Shown here one piece after another: positions 4,665 through 61,337 of a DNA stretch of 61,395 nucleotides (position 1 is its first letter; each line of letters begins with the position of its first letter). Location: contig CALVKD010000002.1 of NCBI GenBank assembly GCA_944332525.1, positions 1 to 61,395 on the forward strand. The letters run 5' to 3'. The translations under genes were made by a program, and so were the position numbers. The DNA is from an uncultured Bacilli bacterium. GTDB taxonomy: Bacteria > Bacillota_I > Bacilli_A > RFN20 > CAG-449. The notes under the pieces were generated by a model. The model ran no database searches, was not told the origin of the DNA, and saw only the letters and a program-made list of their open reading frames with translations.

Positions 4665-6824
4665 TTATTTGTCATGATTTTTATTTGTTTCATTATTATC
4701 AAAGACAAAATGAAAATTTACATACTTATCTTTGAAATCAGCTTTTAACGTAGCTTTATATTGATTACCAGTTTTCTTAGAAACTAAATCATCGAAAGTT
4801 ATTTCACCTTTAGTAAAAATCTCTTTAGCAATCTTATTATTTATTTTTTTATTAAGAGAAGCAAAAAGGTGATTATCTTTAAAAAGGGAAAGCGAACAAG
4901 CTGAATTAACACAGCGGTATCCTTTTTCGCTGATTGCAATCGGATAAGAACAACGCGGGCATTTACAAAGGGTATGAGCTTTATCAACCTCAAATATTTT
5001 TGGAGGGAAACCAATCGCTGCATTATTATCTATTTGATTAAATAATGAGCTTATTTCTTCTTCAGCTACTTTAACCGCATCATCAATAGTAATTTCCTTA
5101 CGGTAAACTTTCTTTAATGATTTTCCAAGCAACGCTGTCTTTTTCTTGGCTAGTAGCAGATTAAGCGCAGTCAAAGTCTCAACATAATATTTTCCCATCG
5201 GTTCTAGTTTATAGGTATTATCTTTTAATGAGATATAACCCTGCTTGACCGCATTATCAATAATTGTTGATCTCGTCGCTTCAGTTCCTAATTCAATACC
5301 TTCAAAGACCGCTTTATAGTCTTCATCATCACTTTGATTATCGTCATTGTCTTTTTTCTCCAATTGTTCGCGGAAAGGATTTTTTAAAAAATTATTGAAA
5401 CTTTCAACCGAATAACGCTTTGGAGGTTTGGTTTCTTTTTCTAAAGGAGCAAAATTAATCATTACTTCATCACCTTGATTTAATTTCGGTAATATTTTCT
5501 CCTTACGTTCTCGTTCATCAAAAACCGTCCAGCCCGGAGTAATCACTGTCTCACCATTTAAGCGAAAAACTTCTCTTTTACCTAAAGATATTTCCATATT
5601 TGTCTTCGCGACAACACACATCTCCGAGGCAAAAACTGCAAAGAAACGATTAACAATTGTTTTATAGACCTGATATTCTTCTTCGCTTAAATCGCTTTTC
5701 TTAGGAATTTTATATGTCGGAGTCAAGGCTGAATGCGATTCAATTTTGCTATCGTCAAAAATAAACTTATTATCCTTAAAGTTAATTTTAACTCCGAGTT
5801 TTTGAAAAGAAGCAATAATTTCTTTAAATTTACCTTTTTCATTAGTCGCTAAATATTCCGATGGAGTACGCGGATAAGAAACATATCCTTTTTCATAAAG
5901 CGACTGAACAATTTTTAAAGAATGTTCCAAGCTCATCTTGTACTTTTTGCCTAGTACGCCTTGTAATTTACTAAGCGAAAAAAGTCTCGGTGAAGGAATT
6001 GTTTTATTTTCTAAGGAAATCTTCGTCACATAGGCTTTTTCACCATTATAAATATCTGCAAGAGTTTTAGCTTGATCTAATTCGTCGGCTTTGAATTCAA
6101 CTTTGCTAACTAATTCAACAACTTCTCCATTGGTCTTTTCTTTGCTTGAAAGAACATAATATTTTTCCTTTACAAAGTTAATAATCGACATCTCTTTATC
6201 ATAAATCGCTTTAACGATTGGTGAAATAACCCTGCCTACTCTTAAAAGGGTATGGCTTTTAATTGAAGCTAAACGGGTTAGATTAATTCCATATAACCAA
6301 TCGATATAGGTTCGAGCATAACCTTCAAAAGCCAGATTGTCATAATAAGAATCATCTTGCAGTTTACTTAACTCTTCTCCGATAGTCTTTTTAGTTTGAT
6401 CAGGCATCCATAACCGTTTAATCGGTTTACTATTTTTTATCGCGTAGGAAACAATAATTCTCACGATGATTTCACCTTCGCGATCAGAGTCCCCAGCATT
6501 GATGATCATTTCAACATCTTGACGATTTATTAAATCGCGAATAATCTTAAATTGTTTAATTATTCCATCATCGTGCGATAAACCAAAGCGAAATTTTTCT
6601 GGATAAAACGGAAGATTATCCAAAGTCCAGCGATACTTTTTTTCTTTATCGTAATCCGGAAGATATTGTTCGACATCATACAAAGTAAAAAGATGGCCAA
6701 AAGCATAGGTAATTAAATAATCACCTATTTCATAATAACCATCATTTCTTTTTTCTTTACCTTCGATAGCTGCTAATATATTTCGCGCTAAAGAAGGTTT
6801 TTCAGCAATAATCAGTTTATACAT
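4665..6824 (-). CDS. topB: DNA topoisomerase III (type IA) with C-terminal zinc-ribbon
   Basis: This 719-aa protein has a TOPRIM N-terminus (LIIAEKPS...DSDREGE) and the active-site region (YVSYPRT). The C-terminus carries CPRC...C..SC. Confidence 0.9.
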   Translation of the reverse strand: MYKLIIAEKPSLARNILAAIEGKEKRNDGYYEIGDYLITYAFGHLFTLYDVEQYLPDYDKEKKYRWTLDNLPFYPEKFRFGLSHDDGIIKQFKIIRDLINRQDVEMIINAGDSDREGEIIVRIIVSYAIKNSKPIKRLWMPDQTKKTIGEELSKLQDDSYYDNLAFEGYARTYIDWLYGINLTRLASIKSHTLLRVGRVISPIVKAIYDKEMSIINFVKEKYYVLSSKEKTNGEVVELVSKVEFKADELDQAKTLADIYNGEKAYVTKISLENKTIPSPRLFSLSKLQGVLGKKYKMSLEHSLKIVQSLYEKGYVSYPRTPSEYLATNEKGKFKEIIASFQKLGVKINFKDNKFIFDDSKIESHSALTPTYKIPKKSDLSEEEYQVYKTIVNRFFAVFASEMCVVAKTNMEISLGKREVFRLNGETVITPGWTVFDERERKEKILPKLNQGDEVMINFAPLEKETKPPKRYSVESFNNFLKNPFREQLEKKDNDDNQSDDEDYKAVFEGIELGTEATRSTIIDNAVKQGYISLKDNTYKLEPMGKYYVETLTALNLLLAKKKTALLGKSLKKVYRKEITIDDAVKVAEEEISSLFNQIDNNAAIGFPPKIFEVDKAHTLCKCPRCSYPIAISEKGYRCVNSACSLSLFKDNHLFASLNKKINNKIAKEIFTKGEITFDDLVSKKTGNQYKATLKADFKDKYVNFHFVFDNNETNKNHDK

Positions 6825-6844
6825 ATTAATAATTATAACGCATT

Positions 6845-7384
6845 TTAACGATAAACAATTAATGTCCGAACATTATCATAGACTCTTTTCATCAAATCAT
6901 CTTTTGTAATGACATAATAAAGGAAGAATTTTTTATTATTATTTAAGAAATGTTTAAAATGCAATTTTAGAAGAACTACTTCATCGACTTTAATGCCGCT
7001 GAGGCGTTCATTTTCATAGAGGATCATAAAATCTTTGTGATGATGATGCGTGGTAAAATTGATTTTATATTCTTTTTGATGGAAGGAAAAACCCTCATTA
7101 AAAGCAATTCTTTCCAAATTATCGGCATTATCGAAATCACGATATACAACTTTTCCTTTCATATCTTTTAGTGAAATAAAAAAGTATAGTAACCCTTTAG
7201 GAGGGAGATAAACTGAATTAATTTTTTCACGGATATCGCTAAGATTAATTTGACAAACGAAAAAGTCATCGTCTTGATAAGAATTATCCATTTGATAAAA
7301 ATCTGGGTCACCAAAAAAACAGCTGCGTCCAAGCGGCGAAACTTTCTTTTGTTTTTTTAGTTCAAGGCAAAGATATGTTTTCAT
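6845..7384 (-). CDS. YwqG/DUF1963-like protein
   Basis: This 179-aa protein has the pattern FFGDPDF...CQINLSD...LPPKGLLYFF, which resembles the DUF1963 core. The assignment is tentative. Confidence 0.45.
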   Translation of the reverse strand: MKTYLCLELKKQKKVSPLGRSCFFGDPDFYQMDNSYQDDDFFVCQINLSDIREKINSVYLPPKGLLYFFISLKDMKGKVVYRDFDNADNLERIAFNEGFSFHQKEYKINFTTHHHHKDFMILYENERLSGIKVDEVVLLKLHFKHFLNNNKKFFLYYVITKDDLMKRVYDNVRTLIVYR

Positions 7385-9409: not shown

Positions 9410-11395
9410 TTAAGGCATAAAATCTTCATAATTATGCGTTGAAAAATAATCTGTGGTCAAAATTGTGTCGAGATAACTCTGTTTTTCTGCAACCGCGGCA
9501 ACAGCATTGAGGAAATCTTCAATCTTTTCACCATAGCTATTAAAAACGCGGCTGATTTTATTTTCAGCAAAAGCCCAATAATAATTATCAAAAAATGCTG
9601 ATAACTCAATTGAGAAGAAAACTTGAACATCTTCCATCTGCTTGCTGAAAAGGCTATTACCAATATAGAAATTTGGATTATATTCAATACCTAAGAGATC
9701 TAAAACTGTTGGAACAATATTATATGGTGAAGCAAGACGGGTATAAATATTTGTATGATATTTATCAACATAATAGTCAAGTAAATCATCATTTTTAAAG
9801 AATAGAGTTGTTGTATAGATATCCGAATAGTATTTATCTTCTTTGTCATGACGAGAAATTAATTGATTTAAGCATCTTCCGCTATAGCCAGGATAATACA
9901 TATCGTGGTCGCCATAGATAACAAATAATGTATCATCAAGCTTTCCCTCTTCCTCAAATCTTTCAAACATTTGACCTAACGCTTTATCAAAATCCATCGC
10001 GCACATCATATAAGTATCAACGCATGGAGCATCAATAGGAGCATATATTTCTATTGGATTACGCCAAAGATTATTTTTCTTTGCATATTCTAATTTTTCA
10101 CCATACATCTCTTCTAATGTCTCTTGATTAGCGCGATTCGCGTAAGGACCATGCATTGATAATGAAGTATAAAACGCGAAAAATGGTTCATCGCTTTCAA
10201 AGACTTTTTCTGTTACAATTGGCATAGTTAAAGAATCAAAAGTATAATTACCGGACCAATCCCACATCGGATAATCTTCGCCATATAAATCTTCGTGAAA
10301 ATAACTATTATCAAATCCGAGTTTCGGCATTAAAAGTTCACGGCTATATAAGTCCATATTATGTTCTGGTGCAAAGCTAGTATCATGAAAATACATCGTG
10401 TGGTAATCAATATTATTTAACTGGCTAACTAAGGAATATGGGAGATTATAATCATAACGGGAAGGTAAAACACCAGCTGTAGGAGCAGATCCAGTTAAGC
10501 CGATAAATTCCGAGATATTAGTTTTATTTTTTGAAAGAGTATCTTCACAATATAATGAATTTTGTGTCAAAGCATACATATTCGGCGTGAGATATTCATT
10601 TATCATCAAATCATCGCCGGTTTCAATCATAATGACAAAAACATTTTTTCCTTCTAAAAGCCCGGTAAAAGAATTTTGATAATCGACATTTTGTTTAAAA
10701 TAATCTATCATTTTTTGTTCATCCGGTTCAGGTGCCCCATTAAGAAGGTAATCTAGTTCTTTAATATAATAAGACATCATGCCGTAACGCGAAAAATTAT
10801 CATTTTTCGAAATAGTAATAATGTCATCAACCGAACTACCAAAACCATCATCGTTGATTGAATACATAGAAAGGGTATAACTTCCTAATAAGCAAACTAT
10901 TAATCCCAGCGTTAAAAATGGATGACCTTTCACGCGTATCTTGTTTCTTACTAAATCATGTGATTGGTCGATTTTAAATAACACCTTGTTAATAAAAAAT
11001 AACGATGCCACAAATAGTCCATAGATAAAGACAATTAGTGAAAGTAAGGCGAAGTCATAATAACTCGGATCACCAGCAATCGCGGCACCATGATTAAAGA
11101 ACGACAAGTTTAACAATGAAAAGATTGTTCCAAAATTGCGATAGAACATACAATTTGCACCAACTAAGACTGCAAATAACAGCATAAGCGCATCAAGATA
11201 AATATAATCGAATATTGATGATTTGAAAAAGAAAATTGGGCTAGCTAAAAAAGCTATTAAAAGCAAATCGCAGAAAAAATAAGTCGGGACAAACTCATGA
11301 AAAATATATGCGTATTGAATCACTTGCAAGATAATGTAAAAAAAGATGAAAGTGATATATATAGCCGATTTTCTAAAAAACAAATTCTTAATCAT
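9410..11395 (-). CDS. LTA-synthase-family membrane protein, paralog 2
   Basis: It is colinear with 7385-9334 and shares long identical stretches with it (FTGLLEGKNVF.IMIETGDD.MINEYLTPNMY, FYTSLSMHGPY, YGDHD). Confidence 0.75.
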   Translation of the reverse strand: MIKNLFFRKSAIYITFIFFYIILQVIQYAYIFHEFVPTYFFCDLLLIAFLASPIFFFKSSIFDYIYLDALMLLFAVLVGANCMFYRNFGTIFSLLNLSFFNHGAAIAGDPSYYDFALLSLIVFIYGLFVASLFFINKVLFKIDQSHDLVRNKIRVKGHPFLTLGLIVCLLGSYTLSMYSINDDGFGSSVDDIITISKNDNFSRYGMMSYYIKELDYLLNGAPEPDEQKMIDYFKQNVDYQNSFTGLLEGKNVFVIMIETGDDLMINEYLTPNMYALTQNSLYCEDTLSKNKTNISEFIGLTGSAPTAGVLPSRYDYNLPYSLVSQLNNIDYHTMYFHDTSFAPEHNMDLYSRELLMPKLGFDNSYFHEDLYGEDYPMWDWSGNYTFDSLTMPIVTEKVFESDEPFFAFYTSLSMHGPYANRANQETLEEMYGEKLEYAKKNNLWRNPIEIYAPIDAPCVDTYMMCAMDFDKALGQMFERFEEEGKLDDTLFVIYGDHDMYYPGYSGRCLNQLISRHDKEDKYYSDIYTTTLFFKNDDLLDYYVDKYHTNIYTRLASPYNIVPTVLDLLGIEYNPNFYIGNSLFSKQMEDVQVFFSIELSAFFDNYYWAFAENKISRVFNSYGEKIEDFLNAVAAVAEKQSYLDTILTTDYFSTHNYEDFMP

Positions 11396-52222: not shown

Positions 52223-53035
52223 TTATTTAGAAAAGGCTAAATCAATAGCTTTGTATTCATTGAATTTTTTAATTATTGATTTAATATGGCATCCATCTTT
52301 ATCATCAGGTAAAAACTTATATAAATTATCTAAAATTGATTCATCTATATCTTTGTAGTAGGCTTCGGCAATACTGCAAGATATCGCGGCTGTGGTATCG
52401 CAGTCGCCTCCAATAGAAATCGTGGTTCTTAAACAGTCTTCAAAAGACGATGAAATTAAAAAGCAGAAGATTGCTTGAGGAATAGTTTTTTGACAAGTTT
52501 CATTGAAGCGATAATGTTTTTTCAAGTCTTCATATTCGAAATTCAGATTATAGTATTTTTCTGCATATTGCTTAATAAACTCTTTACTCTTTCCTTTACG
52601 CGCGTAAAATATGCACATCGCAGTTACTTCCGCGCCTTTTAATCCCTCTATATGGGAATGGGTCACTTCGGTAATGGCTTTTGATATTCTTTTGACCTCT
52701 TCTTCATCTTGACAATACCAGCCAACAGGAGAGATTCTCATTGCTGCTCCATTGCCAAAGTTATGATAAGATTCTCTTTCATCGCTAAATAACCAATCAA
52801 AAAAGTGTCCACCATAACCGCGATCTGGATATGCTCTTTCCCATTTTTTAAAAGTATCAATTATTTTATCCTTATCATCGTAATAATGCTTTTGCATTAT
52901 TTCAGCGACCGCTAAAGTCATAATTGAATCATCTGTTAAAAAAGAATTTTTTGAAAACAAAGGAAAGTCTTTACTTCGAACATTATTAAATTCATATACT
53001 GAACCGACAGTATCACCAATAATTGCGCCTAACAT
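52223..53035 (-). CDS. ADP-ribosylglycohydrolase family protein
   Basis: It has the N-terminus MLGAIIGDTVGSVYEF followed by LTDDSIMTLAV. It also has GNGAAMRISP and GGDCDTTAAI, which are metal-site motifs of the ARH/DraG family. Confidence 0.85.
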   Translation of the reverse strand: MLGAIIGDTVGSVYEFNNVRSKDFPLFSKNSFLTDDSIMTLAVAEIMQKHYYDDKDKIIDTFKKWERAYPDRGYGGHFFDWLFSDERESYHNFGNGAAMRISPVGWYCQDEEEVKRISKAITEVTHSHIEGLKGAEVTAMCIFYARKGKSKEFIKQYAEKYYNLNFEYEDLKKHYRFNETCQKTIPQAIFCFLISSSFEDCLRTTISIGGDCDTTAAISCSIAEAYYKDIDESILDNLYKFLPDDKDGCHIKSIIKKFNEYKAIDLAFSK

Positions 53036-53086
53036 AATTAAACCTCTTATAGTTATTATATAGCAAATAAACTACAAATTGCTTAA

Positions 53087-53114
53087 ACAAAAAAATCTGC
53101 TTTATTAAGCAGAT
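53087..53114 (-). terminator. intrinsic terminator
   Basis: An 8-bp stem pairs ATCTGCTT (53095-53102) with AAGCAGAT (53107-53114). A U-run follows on the minus strand. Confidence 0.7.
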
Positions 53115-53286
53115 TATTCTTCCTCAATCATATCGCGAAAGCGCGGCTCAATATTAATAGAAGTATCATCACTAAAGTCTATGAAAAGAAAAAAACAGGA
53201 TTCATCGTTTGCTCTGTCTTAACAGTTATTTCGCTTGCCTCCTATTTATTAGTGTTTATTCTATAATTAATTTATTATCGTATTTA

Positions 53287-53934
53287 TCAATACTTATTTA
53301 ATAACTTAACTTCTTCAATTATTGTTTTAACTTGGTTTATATCTTTTAAAGGATAAACTATATAATTTTTTTCTAATGTTTTGATGATGACTTTACCTGA
53401 TGGCCAATAGCCATGGGTTTTAACATCAATTGAGATTATTTGATTATATTTTATTTCTCTTTTACCGGCGATAGTTTTAATTCGTATATCATAGTCGTTA
53501 TATTCAATTAATACTTTACTTGTAGGAAAAATTGAGATAAATAACATATATATTAACTGAAGACCTTTAATACCTATAAGAATGTTATAGATGATAACCG
53601 GAATAATATCTGAATTAGCAGTTAAGATATTTAACCCAATATCCACGAGAATTATTATTAATAAAGAAACTGAGTATAAAAGTATATAGCCATAATGTTT
53701 AAAACCAACCGGCTTGTATTCTAAGTTTTTATCTTGATCATTACTATCTAATAAATAATTCATGCTTACTTTAAATTCTTTTGAAATTAAACGTAAAACA
53801 TCAATTGATGGATAGCTAAGGTCTCTTTCCCATTTAGAGACTGCCTGCCGAGTAACATATATTTTATTTGCCATTTCATCTTGAGACAAATTGTTCTCTT
53901 GACGGATGGCTTTTATTTTTTCACTTAAGTTCAT
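53287..53934 (-). CDS. XRE-family HTH protein with two TM helices and a small C-terminal beta-rich (PH-like?) domain
   Basis: It has the HTH_3 N-terminus IKAIRQENNLSQDEMANKIYVTRQAVSKWE and hydrophobic helices at residues about 85-135. It has an AGAGGAAA RBS. Confidence 0.75.
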   Translation of the reverse strand: MNLSEKIKAIRQENNLSQDEMANKIYVTRQAVSKWERDLSYPSIDVLRLISKEFKVSMNYLLDSNDQDKNLEYKPVGFKHYGYILLYSVSLLIIILVDIGLNILTANSDIIPVIIYNILIGIKGLQLIYMLFISIFPTSKVLIEYNDYDIRIKTIAGKREIKYNQIISIDVKTHGYWPSGKVIIKTLEKNYIVYPLKDINQVKTIIEEVKLLNKY

Positions 53935-54137: not shown

Positions 54138-55040
54138 CTAAATATCAAGTTTCAAATCGTTTTTAGTTATTTTTATTTCTTTAAGAATTCTTGATTTAAA
54201 ATTTTTAGGAATTCTAATTTTTAAAATATGATCTTCATTTAATTTTGGATTTTGAATTTCATGAATACCAATATTATAAAATGGTGCTTTAAGAGTTGAT
54301 GGATATATTTTATGACAATAATTAGCACCATTATAAAATGCACTTCCACAATAAAATAATGAACCCTCTTGACTCACTAGTCTTCTATTTTTCCTTTCTT
54401 TATCATAATCATAAATTACCATAAATCCGTATGGCAAATAAGCAGCTATGTCACAGCAAAGATTATTTATTCTATCATGGTTTATTTCTGGATACTTCTC
54501 TTTAAAGTACTTATCTTCCAATAAGCGACTAGCTAATGCTTTATTTTCTATAATTTTATCGTCAATAATAGAAAGGTAATTTATAATGCTAGTGCTAATC
54601 CACTCTGATTTATGTGGAAAATATTGACAAATATATATCGCTCCATCCATATCATCACTAATTTTATTTTTATCTATATCATAACAAGCAAAAAATAAAG
54701 CCACTTTTATATTTGAAGTAAAATCTATTCCTCTGGTTGGAATACCATAATGTTGGGCAAAAGGTATTATTTGATTAATTTCTATATTTGCGTGATTAAG
54801 TACAGAATACAATAAAATTTCATTTTCTGAATATTTTTGTGGTGTTCTATTTATGCTTGGAATCAAATTCCAAGCATAATTCATTTGACCTCTAAAAAAT
54901 AAATAGAATTGAAATGGATTAAACTCATCGTATTTACCTTTATATATTTCATAATGTGAAAAATATCTGTCTATTGTACTTTTTAAAGTATCCAAAATAT
55001 TAAGTGAATTAATAAAAATATTTTTAGAAATTTCAATCAT
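54138..55040 (-). CDS. FRG domain protein
   Basis: It has the motifs FFRGQMNYAWNLIPSINR and AQHYGIPTRGIDFTSN, which match the FRG domain signature (FRGQ...L.PS..R and AQHyG.pT..lD.T). Confidence 0.75.
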   Translation of the reverse strand: MIEISKNIFINSLNILDTLKSTIDRYFSHYEIYKGKYDEFNPFQFYLFFRGQMNYAWNLIPSINRTPQKYSENEILLYSVLNHANIEINQIIPFAQHYGIPTRGIDFTSNIKVALFFACYDIDKNKISDDMDGAIYICQYFPHKSEWISTSIINYLSIIDDKIIENKALASRLLEDKYFKEKYPEINHDRINNLCCDIAAYLPYGFMVIYDYDKERKNRRLVSQEGSLFYCGSAFYNGANYCHKIYPSTLKAPFYNIGIHEIQNPKLNEDHILKIRIPKNFKSRILKEIKITKNDLKLDI

Positions 55041-55077
55041 TTAAGTTTCATTTTTTTGTTTTATTTTTCAAATAAAT

Positions 55078-55449
55078 TTAATTTATATAAACAAAGGACT
55101 GAGGAGCAGATTTAATTCCAAAATCAACTAACTCTTTTGGCTGATCATATATTTTTACATTTCCCAATTTATATGCATAGGCAATTTGTTTCTTATAAAA
55201 ATATTTATCAAAATACTTTTTGCTAATTCCTGCCTCTGAATTAGTTTTTATCCACAATTCTTCTGGTGGTAAAATTAAAACTTCCAAAATATCAACTTCA
55301 GCAACAACTTTTTTTATTGGCATCGTTTCATAAATAAGAAGCTTATCAATATTATATTTAGCAACTATTTTTCTATATTCATACTTTTTTGTCCCATTAA
55401 GTATGTTTGTTACATGTTCAGGGTGAATAGATATAACAATTCTTTTCAT
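55078..55449 (-). CDS. ASCH domain protein
   Basis: This 123-aa protein has MKRIVISIHPEHVTNILNGTKKYEYRK, a typical ASCH (PUA-like) N-terminus. It has an AAGGAG RBS inside the upstream gene's last codons. Confidence 0.7.
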   Translation of the reverse strand: MKRIVISIHPEHVTNILNGTKKYEYRKIVAKYNIDKLLIYETMPIKKVVAEVDILEVLILPPEELWIKTNSEAGISKKYFDKYFYKKQIAYAYKLGNVKIYDQPKELVDFGIKSAPQSFVYIN

Positions 55450-55453
55450 ATAT

Positions 55454-57307
55454 TTACTCCTTTAAAAATAAATCATATAAACTCCGAGGTATCTCATCAA
55501 AAGGTCTAGGTCCTTCATCATAATTATACAAATTCCGTTCTATTAATTCATTTAAAAGAATTTTATTGGTATATGGCTTATATGTAATTAATTTTATCAC
55601 GGTTCTATATTTTTTGTTATTGTAAAAACAAGTTAATTGATCTTGATTGAATACAGACTTATTTTTGCACTCATTAAGATATTTTTCAAGTGTATCTGGC
55701 TTGATAATTTCTTCTAAAACTGCTAATCCACTACAGACAGAAGAATATTTTTTGGGATATCTTTCACCTATTCTATATATTACTATCAAATCACCAGGTT
55801 TAGGTTCCATTTTATGGGTGCCACTGACATATATCTTTTCCAATGAATATAAATGTCCTTTATTACCCATATAAAGTGACATGTCCTCATTTTTTAAAAT
55901 TGAATCAGGAAATAATTCTGTATGATATTCAGGATTAATTGGCAACATAAACATTTTAAAATCATTTTTGATATTAGGAAAATTATATTTAACTGATTTT
56001 TCAGGGTTATATTCATTTAATTTTTTTACATATACTGATTCATCGCCATTAGATGTTTTTTTTATTCCATATTTGTAAAATCCCCATTGTTTGAAAATAT
56101 CTCGTAAAGCATCTATTTCAATTCTTTTATTTTCGAATAAAGTAACATAAATTTCATCAGCATGAATATTTAAAGCATTATCAAAAATTATCTTTAAAAA
56201 TCTTTCACCTAATCTAAACCCAGAAACTTCATTATCAATTTTAAACGTTCCAACCTTTAATCTTTTTAGTGGTTGGAGCGCTGGAATAACGCTTAGATAA
56301 TCTTTTTCATCGTCAAATTCAGTTTTAATATACAAAAAGCCATGTATATGATTATCTTTTTTAAAAACATAAGCTTCGTCATTATTTTTTTTACAAAACC
56401 AATCTTCAAATCCAGGATAATCCAATTTGAGAGTATCGAAAAATGGGTCATTCAAATTAATAGTTCCAAATTTTTCTTTCCTAATTGATAATACATTATA
56501 TTCAATTTTTTCTGGGAATAACTTTTCAACATTTTTTAAATATTCATCTGTTGAAATAACTTGGTTTCTAATATATAATTTTTCAGCTTTTAATAGTATT
56601 TTTTTATCTTGCGTTATAAGTAAATCAGCAATACCAGAATAAACTTGATATAATATATTATTATCTATAAGACTATTATCATCAGTTGAAAAATTTTTCA
56701 TTACATTGTTAAAAAAAACATCACTAATCGTTGTTGGTATGATTTTTTCATAAGCATTTAACTTTATATTCATTCCTCGTCTTATCTTTATATCGCCATG
56801 TTTTTCTAACTCTGAAATTGTGTCTGGATGAATTAGTTTCCGACAATTTAAAACATCTAGCCATTTATAGACATTGCTTACTTCAAACGAAACATTATCA
56901 TAACTTTCTCGATGAATAATGATGTTGGTATCTAGAAGAACTCTCAAATTTCTGTAATTTAAACTCATTGGTTTAATTCCAATTTTCAAAATACCTTTAC
57001 TATTCATCAAACTCTTACTATAAATCCTATAGCATATTTTCAAAGCATCTTGAAAACAATTACACTGCCCTTTAAAATCATCATTCCAAGAATCGACAAT
57101 TGCATCTTCAAAATTATCATACATTTTCACAGATGTAACCTTAACATTAACATAATCTAAAGCATTCTGATTCGATATTATAGTAATTCTATCGCCATTA
57201 CAAATCTTACTTCTTTCTTCATCATATAGACGATATTCAAATTTTTTTTCACAGTTTCTTATTAACTCTAAAAACTCAGGTTTTATTTTAAATCTATAAT
57301 GTTTCAT
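55454..57307 (-). CDS. multidomain protein: ASCH - PIN nuclease - GNAT-like - C-terminal PUA/ASCH-like domain
   Basis: Residues 5-110 form an ASCH domain (FKIKPEFLELIRNCEKKFEYRLYD). Residues about 120-255 form a PIN domain (VLLDTNIIIHRE...LITQDKK). Residues about 290-430 are GNAT-like (HGFLYIK...GFRLGERFLKIIFDNA). The C-terminus has PKPGDLIVIYRIG. I chose the ATG at 57307, because the ORF-track GTG at 57319 is less likely. Confidence 0.6.
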   Translation of the reverse strand: MKHYRFKIKPEFLELIRNCEKKFEYRLYDEERSKICNGDRITIISNQNALDYVNVKVTSVKMYDNFEDAIVDSWNDDFKGQCNCFQDALKICYRIYSKSLMNSKGILKIGIKPMSLNYRNLRVLLDTNIIIHRESYDNVSFEVSNVYKWLDVLNCRKLIHPDTISELEKHGDIKIRRGMNIKLNAYEKIIPTTISDVFFNNVMKNFSTDDNSLIDNNILYQVYSGIADLLITQDKKILLKAEKLYIRNQVISTDEYLKNVEKLFPEKIEYNVLSIRKEKFGTINLNDPFFDTLKLDYPGFEDWFCKKNNDEAYVFKKDNHIHGFLYIKTEFDDEKDYLSVIPALQPLKRLKVGTFKIDNEVSGFRLGERFLKIIFDNALNIHADEIYVTLFENKRIEIDALRDIFKQWGFYKYGIKKTSNGDESVYVKKLNEYNPEKSVKYNFPNIKNDFKMFMLPINPEYHTELFPDSILKNEDMSLYMGNKGHLYSLEKIYVSGTHKMEPKPGDLIVIYRIGERYPKKYSSVCSGLAVLEEIIKPDTLEKYLNECKNKSVFNQDQLTCFYNNKKYRTVIKLITYKPYTNKILLNELIERNLYNYDEGPRPFDEIPRSLYDLFLKE

Positions 57308-57430
57308 TTCTCCCCTCACTATTTATTCAACCCATCATTAAATATATAATCTATTAAGTATTGATTTATTTCAATATAATTGTTATCAGTAGTTATATTA
57401 AAAAAATTTATAATTAAAAACATACACTTT

Positions 57431-57892
57431 TTATCTTTTCCACGATACATTATTTTTTAATTTAATAAGGTTAGTAATTACTAAATCTATATTATCAATC
57501 CAGTAAACAGTAATTTTGCTATGATTCTTTAAAATAACTTTTAAATGCCCCGCATTCCAATTAAAAAAGCCTCTATCGAATTTGATGTAGTCAAAGTAAT
57601 CGATATCATCCCATTTTACAATTTGCTTATTAATGATAATTAGATATTCTCTATTATATTTTATTAATTCAATCTGCGGATGATGTTTAATATAGAAATA
57701 CATAAATGCACAAAATATTCCTAGAGAAAGAGATATTATAGCAATTAATAACGCTGCTAAATCAAAACCATTAATTATAAGAAGAATAGACATTACTACG
57801 AAGACTAAAAAGAAAGCAATTGAAACAATTATAAGTGATGTAATACCTTCTTTAGTGCGATAAGCAATAGTCTTATATTCACCATTTCCCAT
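57431..57892 (-). CDS. 153-aa membrane protein (2 TM) with a C-terminal beta-rich (PH-like?) domain
   Basis: It is a hydrophobic hairpin followed by a domain resembling the C-terminus of 53287-53934. It has no clear RBS. Confidence 0.45.
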   Translation of the reverse strand: MGNGEYKTIAYRTKEGITSLIIVSIAFFLVFVVMSILLIINGFDLAALLIAIISLSLGIFCAFMYFYIKHHPQIELIKYNREYLIIINKQIVKWDDIDYFDYIKFDRGFFNWNAGHLKVILKNHSKITVYWIDNIDLVITNLIKLKNNVSWKR

Positions 57893-57944
57893 TGGTACAA
57901 TTATATCACAAATATATCGTTATTTTGATGACGTATTAGATATT

Positions 57945-59324
57945 TTAATAGAAATCATCTAATGAAAAGCAGGAGAACTTAGCTCTATCAACATCGCTTT
58001 CAAACCCATTTTTAGAAATAAACCCTAATTTATAGAACCCTATTTCAAGGTTTTTTGTTTGATATATTTCTTCATTTACTACATCTAGGCCTATCTTACT
58101 ATTAGTAAACTTGCATTCATAAGAAATATATCCCTTTTCATCTAGGGTTACTATATCAAATTGACGATTAACTTTGTTTTTCTTATCATTATAAAAATAA
58201 GTTCCAATATCCATAATCGGTGGCATAATTTTTCCTGAGAAATTCATTCTTAATAAAAATTCCTTGCTGATACTCTCAAATTTACGAGGCAGATAAATAG
58301 TCTTGAAATTTTGCTCAACAAATTGATGATAAAAGTATGTCGGATTTATTCTCATTAACGAATATGGCGATAAAGCAATAAAGCTATAATAAAAGTCAAT
58401 AAAATTATCTTTAAAGCGAAAGAATGATAACTTGCGATTACTTTTATCATTTATCGGGGTGTATTTTTCAATAATATCCATTTCTTGCATTTTTTGTAAT
58501 AAATATTTAGGATCGCTCTTATCGTATTGTTTCAAGCAGGCAATTAAATCGCTTTGCTTAGTTTTACCATTAGAAATAAACCTTATCGCATCATTAAAAT
58601 TAGAAATTCTATTTGTTTCTTCTAAAATCATTTGATTTAATTCCATTTCTAAAATTGAATCTTTTTTTACGATTAGATTAATGATATTGTCAATTATTGT
58701 TTTAGAAGTATCAATCAAACTATTGAAGTAAGGCAATCCACCAAAAACCGAATAAGCGATCAATTTATCTTCGTTGCTATAATTTGGATAAAAAAGAGCA
58801 GATTCATAATAATCAAATGGTCTAATAAATAATATATGATTGAATCTTCCATAAGAATGCGAGCCGTATTCCATCATTTTTTCCATTAATCCTACATAGC
58901 TTCCCGAAATAATTAATTTCATCTGCGATTTTTCTTTATAGAGATCAATTGCTGAAGCTAGATAAGATTCAATAGCAAAATCTTTTTCGAGCAAGAAAGT
59001 AAATTCATCGATGATAAGGATAATTTTTTTTCTTTCGGATAATTCAAAGGCAAACTCAAAAAAACTATTAAAATCTTTGAACTTGATGTCGCTTAAAGAA
59101 AGCATTTTCAAAAAAATAGAACTGAGCATTTCTAGATTAGATTCTAAAGAGACTCTTTTACATTCATAATGAATGATTATTGCATCACTACAATTTTTAA
59201 GGGCTTCATTAATGATCGCGGTTTTACCCACTCTTCTCCGACCATATATTAAGGCACTTTCCATTTTATCTGTTTTAAACATCTCTTGAAGTTCTTCAAC
59301 TTCTTTATTTCTGCCGATAAACAT
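57945..59324 (-). CDS. AAA-type ATPase of the Arch_ATPase/DUF234 family
   Basis: It has FIGRNKEVEELQ...IYGRRRVGKTA (Walker A) and IIDEF (Walker B). The C-terminus resembles DUF234. It has an AGGAGA RBS. Confidence 0.8.
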   Translation of the reverse strand: MFIGRNKEVEELQEMFKTDKMESALIYGRRRVGKTAIINEALKNCSDAIIIHYECKRVSLESNLEMLSSIFLKMLSLSDIKFKDFNSFFEFAFELSERKKIILIIDEFTFLLEKDFAIESYLASAIDLYKEKSQMKLIISGSYVGLMEKMMEYGSHSYGRFNHILFIRPFDYYESALFYPNYSNEDKLIAYSVFGGLPYFNSLIDTSKTIIDNIINLIVKKDSILEMELNQMILEETNRISNFNDAIRFISNGKTKQSDLIACLKQYDKSDPKYLLQKMQEMDIIEKYTPINDKSNRKLSFFRFKDNFIDFYYSFIALSPYSLMRINPTYFYHQFVEQNFKTIYLPRKFESISKEFLLRMNFSGKIMPPIMDIGTYFYNDKKNKVNRQFDIVTLDEKGYISYECKFTNSKIGLDVVNEEIYQTKNLEIGFYKLGFISKNGFESDVDRAKFSCFSLDDFY

Positions 59325-59476: not shown

Positions 59477-60094
59477 TTGGCTCACAATATTTTTCACTAT
59501 TTATTCTCAAAAGAAACTAATTTAATTTCTTTGAATGACTTCCCATATATTCGAATAATAAGTCCAGGGATTATGAAATTTGATGGTCAAAAGGCTTATA
59601 TTGCTACAGCGGATGTTGAAGGTACTAAAATTAATTATAATGCACCATTAATTGCATTTGAAAAGCGTGAAAGCCGCGCAAATATGCAACCTATAGCAAA
59701 TAGCGTTTGGTTTGCTAAAATGAAAAATTCTATAAAACACATTAATGTTACTAAAGATGATAGTAATTTTATTGAAAATTATGTTTTTTCAACTGGTTTT
59801 TTAGGATTAAAATGTAAAGACATAGCTTTTGAATATTTAATTAATTATTTAGAGCTTCCTTATTTTGAAAACACAAAAGACTTATTATCCCATGGTGCTA
59901 CTCAACAAAGTATTAATAACGAAGACTTAAAATTATTTAAAATCCATATACCATCAAAAGAACAACTTGAGTTTTTTCATAACAAAACAACGTTAATCTA
60001 TTGTTGCATATCTAAAATTAGCCAAATAAATAATAAATTGATTAATTTGAAAGAGAAGATTTTGCCATTGTTGATAAACGGTCAATTACAATAA
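59477..60094 (+). CDS. hsdS: truncated type I restriction-modification specificity subunit (single target-recognition domain plus C-terminal conserved helix)
   Basis: This 205-aa ORF ends in ...LINLKEKILPLLINGQLQ, which is characteristic of HsdS. The ORF opens with TTG and has no RBS. It is half the length of a normal HsdS and convergent with the full hsdS. Confidence 0.6.
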   Translation: MAHNIFHYLFSKETNLISLNDFPYIRIISPGIMKFDGQKAYIATADVEGTKINYNAPLIAFEKRESRANMQPIANSVWFAKMKNSIKHINVTKDDSNFIENYVFSTGFLGLKCKDIAFEYLINYLELPYFENTKDLLSHGATQQSINNEDLKLFKIHIPSKEQLEFFHNKTTLIYCCISKISQINNKLINLKEKILPLLINGQLQ

Positions 60095-60119
60095 TTTTAA
60101 AGATAAAGAAATTAAAATA

Positions 60120-61337
60120 TTATGTTAATTGTTGATTAATAAGCAAAGGCAACAAAGTATTTTTTAATAGTAACAGTTTTTCGTTAAGTAAGCTAATGTC
60201 ATATATTTTTTTATAAAAAGGTCGTATATATTCACTATATTTTTGCAGTATATCGTAAGGTGGAATAAGCAAATAGGAATGCTCAATTGCATTTTTATTT
60301 ATGTGCTTTTGACAATTCCCTGTTGATGTTTTTTCATACAACTCAATTAAATTTTTAACGCATGGATATAAATAGCCAGCTTCAAAAACATCATTTTCTT
60401 CGATTCCAACGACAGATTGATTTGCACACGAATCAATAGCTAATATACTAACGCGAATATTACCTGTAATTGATACTAATATTGTTCCTTTTTTCATTAA
60501 TTTGGTTGCTGAATATTTCAAACCTAGATTTGAAATTTTTAACTCACTTTTTGTTATTGGAAAATGAGCAATCTCACCTGAATTCAACCAATTTATATCA
60601 CCTTTCCAATATTCTGCTATCTTTGTTGATGGAGTGCCGCCTAATATAATGTTACAGACTTCTGAAATTTTTTTAACTTTCCAATTTAAAGGAATTTTTC
60701 GATTTAAATTTTTATTATAAATTAGATCAGACTTAAAATTTGGAATCTTATATTGAATAAACCAATAGTTATATATTGCTTGTGTCAAAACTTGTAATCT
60801 TTTGACGATGACATTATTATGACTAATTTGGATGTCAATTGAAGATAATATAGATACAATTTTGTTTTGAATTTCTAATGGTGGTAAATCGATAGTAACA
60901 TCATAAATATCTTCAGGGGATATATTACGTTGCTTAGTACCGCTTGCTCTAGCTTCTAATTGTTTTTTTACACTTTCTAAAGCCAAAGCATAATGTAAAT
61001 AATATTTATTTACTTTGTTTTCATCGCAAATAATTTTACCTACACGTTGATTTAAAACAAATTTGAAGTCCAATGAAGGCGGTATTAATGCAGTATTTCC
61101 AAATAGACCTGCAACTTGTTCTGTTAAAGGTATAACTAGGTCATCTTTACTTAAAATGAATTCTTTAGGGAAACTACCACTATAGTAAGTAGCTTTAGCG
61201 TCGTTCATTTTAAAAGTATTATTTTCACTAAAATTGCCTAATGTAACCAATCGGAAATAACCTTTATTTACATAGTTTTTACTTTTGAAGGCAAAGCCAT
61301 GCTTAACTTTTAGTATGCTTCCAAGCTTAACCAACAT
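60120..61337 (-). CDS. hsdS: type I restriction-modification specificity subunit (two TRDs)
   Basis: This 405-aa protein has a central conserved helix (LEIQNKIVSILSSID) and a C-terminal helix (LLLLKNTLLPLLINQQLT). It has a GGAGGG RBS. Any hsdM would lie beyond the right edge. Confidence 0.85.
   Translation of the reverse strand: MLVKLGSILKVKHGFAFKSKNYVNKGYFRLVTLGNFSENNTFKMNDAKATYYSGSFPKEFILSKDDLVIPLTEQVAGLFGNTALIPPSLDFKFVLNQRVGKIICDENKVNKYYLHYALALESVKKQLEARASGTKQRNISPEDIYDVTIDLPPLEIQNKIVSILSSIDIQISHNNVIVKRLQVLTQAIYNYWFIQYKIPNFKSDLIYNKNLNRKIPLNWKVKKISEVCNIILGGTPSTKIAEYWKGDINWLNSGEIAHFPITKSELKISNLGLKYSATKLMKKGTILVSITGNIRVSILAIDSCANQSVVGIEENDVFEAGYLYPCVKNLIELYEKTSTGNCQKHINKNAIEHSYLLIPPYDILQKYSEYIRPFYKKIYDISLLNEKLLLLKNTLLPLLINQQLT

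Follow-up and report, generated by a model that had tools for sequence, protein, structure and literature searches.

Do the five minus-strand genes that crowd against type I restriction-modification (R-M) genes in this uncultured Bacilli bacterium form one defence system, or is the functional unit smaller? A sequence-only reading of the window (the whole stretch of 61,395 nucleotides analysed here) had proposed that all five make up a multi-component RNA-acetylation defence operon. Its account of the layout was borne out: an ORF check of the window recovered the five minus-strand genes, all in the same orientation, where it had placed them, and they do occupy the most AT-rich part of the window. 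G+C content is 24-27% across 54-61 kb vs ~30-39% in the rest, and the four lowest-G+C 1-kb bins are those at 54-58 kb. As described, the genes adjoin hsdS, of which two copies are present. The features of the locus are as follows.

54138-55040, minus strand: FRG-domain protein, outside the conserved pair; single-gene defence candidate PDC-S15 (Pfam, PADLOC).
55078-55449, minus strand: 123-aa stand-alone ASCH protein, GevA-like partner, PADLOC PDC-M11B (profile, synteny).
55454-57307, minus strand: 617-aa ASCH-PIN-GNAT-EVE protein, GevT-like predicted effector, PADLOC PDC-M11A; start at ATG 57307.
56963-57307, minus strand: N-terminal ASCH domain of the 617-aa protein, aa 1-115 (Pfam, PDB, Foldseek).
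56513-56950, minus strand: PIN nuclease domain, aa ~120-265 (PIN-only model, family Pfam matches).
55973-56500, minus strand: GNAT-like acetyltransferase domain, aa ~270-445 (Foldseek, invariant residues).
55457-55960, minus strand: C-terminal EVE (PUA-like) domain, aa ~450-617 (Pfam in homologues, RefSeq label).
57431-57892, minus strand: 153-aa protein with two hydrophobic segments (2-TM), outside the pair (sequence).
57945-59324, minus strand: ATPase_2 + DUF234 ATPase, outside the pair; single-gene defence candidate PDC-S27 (Pfam, PADLOC).
59477-60094, plus strand: half-length hsdS with one target-recognition domain (PADLOC Specificity_I 3e-15).
60120-61337, minus strand: full-length type I R-M specificity subunit hsdS (Pfam Methylase_S 3e-32; PADLOC Specificity_I 4.3e-67).

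The largest ORF opens with a GTG (55454-57319), giving 621 aa; an ATG at 57307, preceded by the ribosome-binding site (RBS) GAGGGGAG, gives 617 aa (55454-57307, stop codon included), which is both the length originally read and the length on record for this protein in the searched collection (P0001). Its final codons contain AAGGAG, followed by TAA, 4 nt and the ATG of the small ASCH gene, exactly as had been noted, and this placement and spacing suggest that the small ASCH gene is translationally coupled to the big gene. The FRG gene begins after a further 37 nt, one fewer than the 38 nt first counted. No terminator-like site was seen on the minus strand between 59324 and 54138, so in this genome a single transcript may span all five genes. 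The half-length hsdS is convergent with the full-length copy, and inverted repeats between the two are weak. The window stops 58 nt past the full-length hsdS, and the R-M system is therefore visible only in part.

The domain assignments made from the sequence also held. The N-terminal ASCH domain matches Pfam ASCH (1.5e-4), PDB 1s04 (PF0455; 3.4e-8) and, by Foldseek, 2z0t (2.6e-9, TM 0.87). Of the GxKxxExR motif it keeps K21, E24 and R26, with Cys19 instead of the motif glycine, and resembles the small ASCH protein in its first 26 residues only, a stretch that includes this motif. With an AlphaFold model of the PIN region alone (pLDDT 87), Foldseek returned PIN-type nucleases with few exceptions; the best matches were the RNases Utp24, VapC, SMG6 and HARP (4e-4 and weaker), and the list also holds DNA-acting relatives, namely Exo1 and the PcrIIC1-Cas9 complex. 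No Pfam PIN model matched the window's own protein above threshold; PIN_3 matches nine and PIN_4 six of 20 family members, and the three aspartates D126, D215 and D234 are kept without exception in homologues down to 25% identity. The GNAT-like domain, before which stands an invariant DYPGFxxWF motif, lacks the canonical Q/RxxGxG/A motif and matched no Pfam GNAT model by sequence; Foldseek places it at ~1e-5 to Naa60, PaiA, Ard1 and many other GNATs, and viral GNATs were also matched. The C-terminal module, read as PUA-like, is more specifically an EVE domain: Pfam EVE (PF01878) matches 11 of the 20 family members (1.3e-5 at best, the window's own copy falling below threshold), a full-length homologue (P0095) has a precomputed EVE match, and a homologue on a Rhizobium plasmid is labelled 'EVE domain-containing protein' in RefSeq. 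In the GNAT and EVE domains, too, many positions stay unchanged in homologues as distant as 25% identity, and the window copy keeps every family-invariant residue. The full protein was modelled at pLDDT 86 and pTM 0.79, and more than 4,400 homologues were found.

The remaining gene products were likewise as read. The small protein is an ASCH protein (Pfam ASCH 3.4e-5), the FRG protein carries its domain (Pfam FRG 4.2e-16) and the ATPase, described as Arch_ATPase/DUF234, matches ATPase_2 (5.5e-18) and DUF234 (5.9e-10). The 2-TM protein had no Pfam or PADLOC match, with STM3941_fam as a weak, sub-threshold hit.

The sequence-only reading did not recognise the system and proposed a PADLOC run, which identified it. 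PDC-M11A matches the big protein (1.9e-147, aa 126-620) and PDC-M11B the small ASCH protein (3.7e-39), the two genes being adjacent and in the same order as in PDC-M11; the only other PADLOC match of the pair was a marginal one to pAgo (E=0.025). The FRG protein and the ATPase fall separately into PDC-S15 (1.5e-23) and PDC-S27 (4.6e-36). The architecture is thus already catalogued, not only as PDC-M11 but also in the literature and in GenBank. Bell et al. (2020, BMC Biol 18:159; PMC7641849), crediting Iyer et al. (2013, NAR 41:7635), describe (PIN)-GNAT-EVE operons, nearly always with an ASCH gene, as predicted toxin-antitoxin modules often found near type I R-M genes such as HsdRMS. The PIN-GNAT-EVE fusion, the separate ASCH gene and the proximity to type I R-M or defence genes are common to these operons, the window and its relatives. 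In GenBank, Escherichia phage PhiR47_2 (PV340567.1, 2025) carries a 'GevT toxin' and 'GevA antitoxin', names that are depositor annotation only. The GNAT-EVE part of the big protein is 40% identical to GevT (E=5e-57) and the small ASCH protein 42% identical to GevA (E=3e-32); gene order is the same, and the genes overlap or are tightly coupled. GevT differs from the window protein in its length of 357 aa, in lacking the PIN and N-terminal ASCH domains and in being prophage-borne. Together, these matches establish by homology that the pair belongs to the PDC-M11, '(PIN)-GNAT-EVE + ASCH' or GevT-GevA family. The PDC-M11A profiles (357-501 positions) start at window residue ~125 or later and leave the N-terminal ASCH domain uncovered, and the passages of Bell et al. 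on these operons mention no such domain on the large protein (PMC7641849). This extra ASCH domain is the pair's sole architectural departure from the description given there. Our literature search found no experimental paper on the GNAT-EVE + ASCH pair family and no reported phenotype for PDC-M11, which is a computational candidate.

How many of the five genes belong to this family's unit was decided by comparative genomics. Among 18 related bacterial and archaeal loci (25-62% identity to the window protein), 17 have the big gene and the small ASCH gene side by side, as does a lambdoid phage; as a rule the two genes are tightly coupled or overlap. Homologues of the FRG, 2-TM and ATPase genes occur in none of these 18 loci, and none of the window's other four genes was found in 18 loci with ATPase homologues. 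The co-occurrence search that had been suggested therefore upheld the small ASCH gene as a partner and not the FRG gene. The module comprises two genes rather than five: the conserved unit is an effector-first pair, and the genes for the FRG protein, the 2-TM protein and the DUF234 ATPase share its AT-rich defence island as independent neighbours.

This absence of co-occurrence largely refutes the five-gene operon, which we now hold to be very improbable. Its genes are co-oriented, closely spaced and uninterrupted by a minus-strand terminator-like site, and an accessory ATPase is indeed found in some (PIN)-GNAT-EVE operons, but the one that Bell et al. report as frequent there is AAA_17 (PMC7641849), as seen with the pair in one relative (L002), and not the ATPase_2/DUF234 type. 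The window locus has no AAA_17 gene, and PADLOC lists its FRG and ATPase genes as single-gene candidates. What stands of the earlier proposal is a defence-linked module of an acetyltransferase, PUA-like domains as readers or erasers and a PIN nuclease, which agrees with published predictions and with ASCH biochemistry; its five-gene extent does not stand.

The biochemistry comes from relatives of the small ASCH protein. Its closest solved structure is ZmASCH (ZMO0922, PDB 5GUQ; 4e-6), which itself matches PDC-M11B at 3e-29 and so falls in the same ASCH subfamily. Family invariants comprise GxKxxExR, kept from phage to archaea and shared with ZmASCH, and Y40, W66, Y83 and P116. Y40, K46 and S118 align with ZmASCH Tyr47, Lys53 and Ser128, which are required for nucleic-acid binding and cleavage in an enzyme that cuts ssRNA, not ssDNA (PMC5615036). 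Deacetylation of ac4C-tRNA by TthASCH, EOLA1 and TRIP4 requires the Lys and Glu of GxKxxExR. In vitro, tRNA was deacetylated by each of the 19 ASCH proteins assayed, ZmASCH among them; no decrease in ac4C was seen with ZmASCH in vivo (bioRxiv 10.64898/2026.02.27.708502). ZmASCH is an orphan, its gene having no adjoining GNAT-EVE gene in Zymomonas, and both of its activities were measured in vitro. The ac4C amidohydrolase YqfB, also an ASCH protein, has Thr where the motif has Glu. A GevA-like ASCH domain also occurs fused to ribosomal protein L22 (NCBIfam PRK12279).

Such fusion, and the general action of ASCH proteins on tRNA ac4C, could be taken to indicate housekeeping turnover of RNA modifications with no role in conflict. 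The distribution of the pair makes this barely credible. The family is patchy across bacteria, archaea and temperate phages, and the window copy sits in an AT-rich island. Its neighbours vary and are mostly defence genes, encoding R-M systems, TIR/ThsB, NERD and SRA-type domains and Schlafen/AlbA_2. Moreover, the pair is carried on prophages and plasmids, with the phage version found in 275 of 5,426 E. coli genomes.

Seven of 15 distinct arrangements have R-M genes directly next to the pair. In three relatives (L010, L015, L016) the big gene and small ASCH gene are followed by hsdR or hsdM at gaps of ~10 nt, which suggests that pair and hsd genes share one operon, and in another (L018) the pair is attached to a type II system. 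About half of the 15 arrangements have no R-M genes nearby, and the link is thus frequent rather than obligatory. In PhiR47_2, gevT and gevA lie directly after cI, in the rexAB slot, with no R-M nearby.

This association raises the possibility of a guard resembling PrrC, in which the effector would be held inactive on the type I R-M complex and released by a phage anti-restriction protein, stopping translation through tRNA acetylation and cleavage. The prrC gene sits within the EcoprrI hsd operon, and PrrC and RloC are translation-targeting suicide effectors in or near hsd operons; the three relatives with ~10-nt gaps are placed likewise, and the window pair lies next to hsdS. This variant of our preferred explanation, differing in its trigger, is nevertheless doubtful. 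Half of the arrangements lack R-M, any function of the phage copies must be independent of it, and PADLOC found no homology to PrrC or RloC in the pair.

In a proposal that Bell et al. trace to Iyer et al. (2013), the pair is a DNA-modification accessory of R-M and not a toxin-antitoxin system. The GNAT domain would acetylate a DNA base, the EVE and ASCH domains would read modified DNA, and the PIN domain would act as a DNase on wrongly modified or hypermodified foreign DNA; the module would be a modification-dependent, type IV-like arm of the adjacent type I system. In prokaryotic defence, EVE domains mostly serve type IV enzymes as readers of modified DNA, and HTH-ASCH and HsdS-ASCH fusions point to DNA, because of which Bell et al. 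suggest that the ASCH protein of such operons, which they hold to bind modified DNA, may be a regulator (PMC7641849), a role distinct from RNA deacetylation. The tight attachment to hsdR/M/S, or in L018 to a type II system, and the Exo1 and PcrIIC1-Cas9 matches fit this proposal too. However, acetylated DNA bases are not known to us from bacteria. The PIN domain has its top matches among RNases, the measured ASCH activities are on ssRNA and tRNA, and phage GNAT-EVE + ASCH pairs annotated as toxin and antitoxin exist without R-M. We therefore regard the accessory role as unlikely.

We consider it likely that the pair is a PDC-M11-type module in which a latent effector is restrained by the small ASCH protein, with the other three genes independent. 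The 617-aa protein would be the toxin: its EVE and extra N-terminal ASCH domains would anchor it to a modified nucleic-acid base, the GNAT domain would acetylate a target, either a nucleobase amine (e.g. cytosine N4) or aminoacyl-tRNA, and the PIN domain would cut nucleic acid. The GNAT fold, by Foldseek, is that of TacT-type toxins (TacT, AtaT, ItaT), which have no sequence relationship to the big protein and differ in being single-domain proteins of ~170 aa with an RHH/DUF1778 antitoxin upstream, a gene absent from the window locus. Restraint would most likely come from hydrolysis of the acetyl mark by the small ASCH protein, an eraser antitoxin comparable to DarG, or alternatively from its occupation of the same nucleic-acid site. 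By analogy with DarTG, where a modifying enzyme is paired with a neighbour able to reverse or block it, such a writer/eraser mechanism with an acetylating GNAT and a deacetylating ASCH is plausible; the resemblance is one of logic without sequence relationship, DarTG consisting of an ADP-ribosyltransferase (DarT) and a macrodomain protein (DarG). Infection by a phage, or breakdown of the neighbouring R-M system, would tilt the balance towards growth arrest. Overall, sequence comparison places the pair in a widespread, already catalogued family of predicted toxin-antitoxin-like defence modules.

A sequence-only reading had placed five co-oriented minus-strand open reading frames in the most AT-rich part of the window, and all five were found as described. 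They are listed here with the two hsdS genes that follow and with their best matches to PADLOC candidate-system profiles (PDC).

Genes of the AT-rich island and the adjoining hsdS genes
54138-55040, minus strand: FRG gene, 300 aa; PDC-S15 (single gene), 1.5e-23
55078-55449, minus strand: small ASCH gene, 123 aa; PDC-M11B, 3.7e-39
55454-57319, minus strand: large-protein open reading frame, 621 aa counted from GTG; PDC-M11A, 1.9e-147
57431-57892, minus strand: gene for a protein with two hydrophobic segments (2-TM), 153 aa; no PADLOC match
57945-59324, minus strand: ATPase gene, 459 aa; PDC-S27 (single gene), 4.6e-36
59477-60094, plus strand: half-length hsdS
60120-61337, minus strand: second hsdS, full

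The first start codon of the large open reading frame is a GTG, but GAGGGGAG precedes the ATG at 57307; starting there yields the 617 residues previously proposed, and the protein is recorded at the same length in the searched collection (P0001). The junction of the large and small ASCH genes reads ...AAGGAG TAA atat ATG, confirming both that the ribosome-binding site of the small ASCH gene falls within the last codons of the large gene and that 4 nt separate the two. The spacing between the small ASCH and FRG genes, put earlier at 38 nt, measures 37 nt. G+C content is 24-27% over 54-61 kb against about 30-39% in the rest of the window, the four lowest 1-kb bins being those of 54-58 kb, in agreement with the AT-richness reported for the island. 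Scans for promoters and terminators carry no information in DNA this rich in A and T: 59 promoter-like sites were counted where chance alone would give 68.

The ATPase gene, 0.15-2 kb away from the hsdS genes, separates both of them from the large and small ASCH genes. The hsdS genes are convergent, with 25 nt between them, a layout that recalls phase-variable type I loci. The inverted repeats linking them are weak (21-32 nt, 72-82% complementary), so a phase-variable hsdS shufflon was not established. No recombinase gene, hsdM or hsdR was seen near 59477-61337 up to the end of the window, which stops 58 nt past the second hsdS and thus leaves hsdM and hsdR out of view. On the downstream side of the island, positions 52223-53934 (minus strand) encode an ADP-ribosylglycohydrolase (Pfam, 1.9e-35) and an XRE-type HTH protein; the C-terminal half of the latter is hydrophobic, and its HTH part resembles the PADLOC HTH_VI, RmrA and control-protein profiles.

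To define which of these genes belong together, tblastn with all five proteins was run on 18 related loci, 9 from genomes and 9 from metagenomes, surrounding close relatives of the large protein. The small ASCH gene lies immediately 3' of the large gene in 16 of the 18, and in 17 when an actinobacterial locus (L008) is included, where it was recognised by eye from the motifs GRKxVEFRR and PPQSF. The FRG, 2-TM and ATPase proteins were detected by tblastn at none of the 18, and conversely the other genes were all missing from 18 metagenome loci carrying ATPase homologues. Conservation thus extends to the large gene and the small ASCH gene alone, hereafter the pair. These data overturn the earlier view of 54138-59324 as a five-gene RNA-acetylation defence module: the expected co-occurrence is borne out for the small ASCH gene and fails for the FRG gene, absent from all 18 loci, which leaves a two-gene pair and three unrelated neighbours. 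The FRG protein and the ATPase are two unrelated single-gene defence candidates in the same AT-rich defence island.

The large protein had been read as a string of ASCH, PIN, GNAT and C-terminal PUA-like domains. Pfam applied to the whole protein matches only the N-terminal ASCH domain (1.5e-4), for which the PDB sequences PF0455 and PH0355 were also retrieved (3.4e-8); the PIN and EVE segments of this copy both fall under the Pfam threshold. As PIN, GNAT and EVE escape detection from this one sequence, we used family-wide Pfam scans and structure prediction. An AlphaFold model built from a family alignment of 32 homologues (mean pLDDT 86, pTM 0.79) retrieved ASCH proteins (2z0t, 2.6e-9, TM 0.87) and many GNAT acetyltransferases (about 1e-5) from the PDB with Foldseek. 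The alignment was then divided by domain for separate analyses of the PIN and C-terminal segments. Pfam detects PIN_3 in 9 and PIN_4 in 6 of 20 family members, and a PIN-only model (pLDDT 87) matches almost exclusively PIN-type nucleases, including Utp24, VapC toxins, SMG6 and HARP RNase P. The C-terminal segment is assigned to EVE in 11 of 20 members (best 1.3e-5). Searching PDB sequences with profiles made from the PIN and C-terminal sub-alignments gave no meaningful match. All four domain calls are thus upheld by the Pfam family scans, AlphaFold and Foldseek, with the refinement that the C-terminal module, previously termed PUA/ASCH-like, is PUA-like and more precisely an EVE domain. Among members down to 25% identity, the PIN domain keeps its aspartates D126, D215 and D234 without exception, and a DYPGFxxWF motif, the GNAT core with its G363/R365/E368 loop and several residues of EVE are likewise invariant; the copy in the window retains every family-invariant residue. 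Such conservation argues that the domains are functional.

This architecture belongs to a described class. Bell et al. 2020 (PMC7641849) set out exactly such a (PIN)-GNAT-EVE class and credit Iyer et al. 2013 with its earlier description. In their account, almost all of its operons encode an ASCH protein, the PIN-bearing form often stands beside type I R-M operons, the GNAT-EVE form without PIN is often found in prophages, and the operons are predicted toxin-antitoxin systems, none of which had then been characterised experimentally. Our data reproduce each of these points. A phage pair bears names of its own: in the lambdoid phage PhiR47_2 (GenBank PV340567.1, 3983-5411) the depositor annotates a 'GevT toxin' (357 aa) and a 'GevA antitoxin' (125 aa). 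Identity amounts to 40% between GevT and the GNAT-EVE part of the large protein (5e-57) and to 42% between GevA and the small ASCH protein (3e-32). Our literature search found no paper that uses the Gev names or tests PDC-M11, the sole mention of PDC-M11 being a strain inventory. The sequence-only reading is therefore sound in its domains and its general idea of defence, and mistaken both in the extent of the module and in treating it as unrecognised, given its place in PADLOC (PDC-M11), in PMC7641849 and in PV340567.1.

Comparison with known systems leads to the same assignment. As in the PDC-M11/'GevTA' module, a GNAT domain is followed by a C-terminal EVE domain (by the PDC-M11A match, Foldseek, the family EVE hits and the identity to GevT), and a separate ASCH gene occupies the same operon (by the PDC-M11B match, the 4-nt gap and the 17/18 loci). 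PIN stands N-terminal to GNAT, as in the host-encoded, R-M-associated subclass, and type I R-M or other defence genes are close by: two hsdS lie here and, of the 15 distinct arrangements that include the window, 7 place R-M genes beside the pair. VapBC systems, in contrast, couple a single-domain PIN toxin to a DNA-binding VapB (AbrB, RHH, PhD or HTH), whereas the PIN fold here is one of four domains and its partner is an ASCH protein without a VapB-type domain. TacAT/AtaRT/ItaRT systems feature a GNAT toxin of about 170 aa and an upstream RHH/DUF1778 antitoxin; here the GNAT domain is embedded in a 617-aa protein, the partner is a downstream ASCH protein, and there is no match to Pfam Acetyltransf or DUF1778. 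Type IV EVE-reader enzymes fuse EVE to HNH, PD-(D/E)XK, PLD, GIY-YIG or McrB, unlike the PIN and GNAT effector domains found here, and PMC7641849 likewise places the (PIN)-GNAT-EVE class under toxin-antitoxin-like systems rather than type IV enzymes. The locus is an additional member of a computationally catalogued, experimentally uncharacterised family; the AT-rich defence island that holds it adjoins genes for type I R-M specificity subunits.

When 1.84 billion representatives were searched exhaustively with a profile, 738 clusters at 50% identity (E<=1e-30) were assigned to this family; they fall into three architectural classes.

Architectural classes of the family, by approximate length
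About 355 aa: GNAT-EVE; query matched from about 275
About 500 aa: PIN-GNAT-EVE; query matched from about 122
About 620 aa: ASCH-PIN-GNAT-EVE; query matched full length; class of the protein in the window

The longest class is abundant among close relatives of the large protein. Its extra N-terminal ASCH domain is covered by none of the PADLOC M11A profiles and receives no mention in the available sections of PMC7641849; relative to the description in those sections, it is the architectural difference of the protein studied here. Within the GxKxxExR octapeptide of this domain, K21, E24 and R26 are present and Cys19 replaces the Gly kept by at least 90% of the family, so the catalytic competence of this copy may differ from that of its relatives. 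Recent duplication of the small ASCH gene was considered as its origin. The two align over their first 26 residues, motif included, and no further; this short alignment and their different closest structures (PF0455/PH0355 and ZmASCH, respectively) led us to reject that origin.

tblastn of phage records located GNAT-EVE homologues in lambdoid E. coli phages, SopEPhi, Lactobacillus prophages and the IFa insert of psiM100. In Methanothermobacter phage psiM100 (AF301375.1 / NC_002628.3, 8182-9534), this 'inserted fragment IFa' (ORFC/ORFD) encodes a PIN-GNAT-EVE homologue with 28% identity over residues 109-561 (E=5e-28). The gevT/gevA pair of PhiR47_2 lies directly downstream of cI, the slot of rexAB in lambda. 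Of 5,426 complete E. coli genomes, 275 (5%) carry its DNA with >=99% identity, always on the chromosome, where RefSeq names the products 'hypothetical protein' and 'ASCH domain-containing protein'.

Across the 18 related loci, the neighbours of the pair are variable and mostly defence genes. Three loci (L010, L015, L016) carry hsdR/hsdM/hsdS directly downstream of the pair with gaps of about 10 nt, two (L008, L009) carry hsdM and hsdS upstream, one (L004) has hsdM at a distance of 2 kb, and in another (L018) the pair is followed by a type II R-M system. ThsB/TIR genes follow the pair in L011, and a Schlafen/AlbA_2 protein and AAA_14 ATPases are encoded close to it in L014. Further features were observed at individual loci. 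In a methanobacteriotal locus (L003, 7961-10221), a second, separate GNAT gene (Acetyltransf_1, 6.8e-9) sits between two GevA-like ASCH genes just downstream of the PIN-GNAT-EVE gene. In L002, an AAA_17 ATPase gene (6440-6979, 1.4e-13) lies two genes upstream of the PIN-GNAT-EVE gene, fitting the accessory ATPase reported in the literature, and an HNH_5 endonuclease gene (10168-10980) lies downstream. The PIN-GNAT-EVE homologue of a Methanosarcinaceae locus (L004, 8001-9491) is probably a pseudogene, since it contains two in-frame stop codons.

Recent work reports that 19 of 19 ASCH proteins tested remove N4-acetylcytidine (ac4C) from tRNA in vitro, that deacetylation requires the Lys and Glu of the GxKxxExR octapeptide, and that ZmASCH, a member of the PDC-M11B family, is among the proteins with ac4C deacetylase activity in vitro (bioRxiv 10.64898/2026.02.27.708502). 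ZmASCH is also described as a Mg-dependent ssRNA nuclease that binds ssDNA without cleaving it; nucleic-acid binding needs Tyr47, Lys53 and Ser128, and cleavage also needs Tyr47 (PMC5615036). Among solved structures, our searches place ZmASCH closest to the small ASCH protein; it matches the PDC-M11B family at 3e-29, and the counterparts of its Tyr47, Lys53 and Ser128 in the small ASCH protein are Y40, K46 and S118. An alignment of 21 small ASCH sequences from phage, bacteria and archaea leaves G19, K21, E24, R26, Y40, W66, Y83 and P116 invariant. The small ASCH protein shares the fold and the putative catalytic Lys and Glu/Thr of GxKxx(E/T)xR that mark YqfB-type/GKER-type ac4C amidohydrolases. 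ZmASCH was also considered as a direct experimental proxy for the pair and dropped: its gene ZMO0922 (Zymomonas mobilis locus L019, 6001-6447) is an orphan with no GNAT-EVE neighbour, the 375-aa upstream neighbour having no PADLOC match and no similarity to the large protein or GNAT-EVE proteins, so the ZmASCH data apply to the small ASCH protein by homology only. The small ASCH protein additionally matches the C-terminal 120 residues of NCBIfam PRK12279, a '50S ribosomal protein L22/unknown domain fusion protein', at 5e-14, far below the cut-off of that model. The match implies that some organism has a fusion of a GevA-like ASCH with ribosomal protein L22, a hint of a connection to the ribosome or RNA.

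PIN, GNAT and both ASCH domains all conserve putative catalytic residues, coupling between the two genes is tight, and the pair is associated with R-M and other defence genes. We infer that the pocket of the small ASCH protein is a working one, base-binding and hydrolytic, rather than a mere protein plug, and that a writer/eraser pair is the most economical model. Under this model the GNAT-EVE effector would acetylate a nucleic-acid target chosen by EVE, assisted here by the N-terminal ASCH domain; PIN would contribute cleavage; and the small ASCH protein would reverse or block effector action until infection or R-M failure shifts the balance. As to the target, PMC7641849 attributes a proposal of DNA base acetylation to Iyer et al. 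2013, and its authors themselves draw attention to fusions of ASCH with HsdS and HTH, which point to DNA.

Extending the writer/eraser model, a joint reading that we consider rather improbable takes the pair as an acetylation-based immune switch, the whole unit guarding the adjoining R-M system. The GNAT-EVE effector would place an acetyl group on a nucleobase, such as N4-acetylcytosine in tRNA, mRNA or DNA, and the mark would either be toxic itself or act as a flag for PIN cleavage. The role of dedicated eraser antitoxin would fall to the GevA-like ASCH, and in the four-domain variant the built-in ASCH, of a different subfamily, would serve as the effector's own reader or proof-reading module.

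For the window, the practical result is that a 'five-gene system' is corrected to a known two-gene candidate. A specialist is unlikely to be surprised by the locus; our literature search found no published mechanism for its family. The family is large, spans bacteria, archaea and temperate phages, and has been a conflict system by prediction since 2013. With the 2026 identification of ASCH domains as ac4C deacetylases, the writer/eraser hypothesis becomes testable for the first time, as a scheme in which an eraser (ASCH) opposes an acetyl writer (GNAT) and EVE and PIN serve as reader and nuclease. If true, the immune switch would be, to our knowledge, the first known immune mechanism based on reversible nucleic-acid acetylation.
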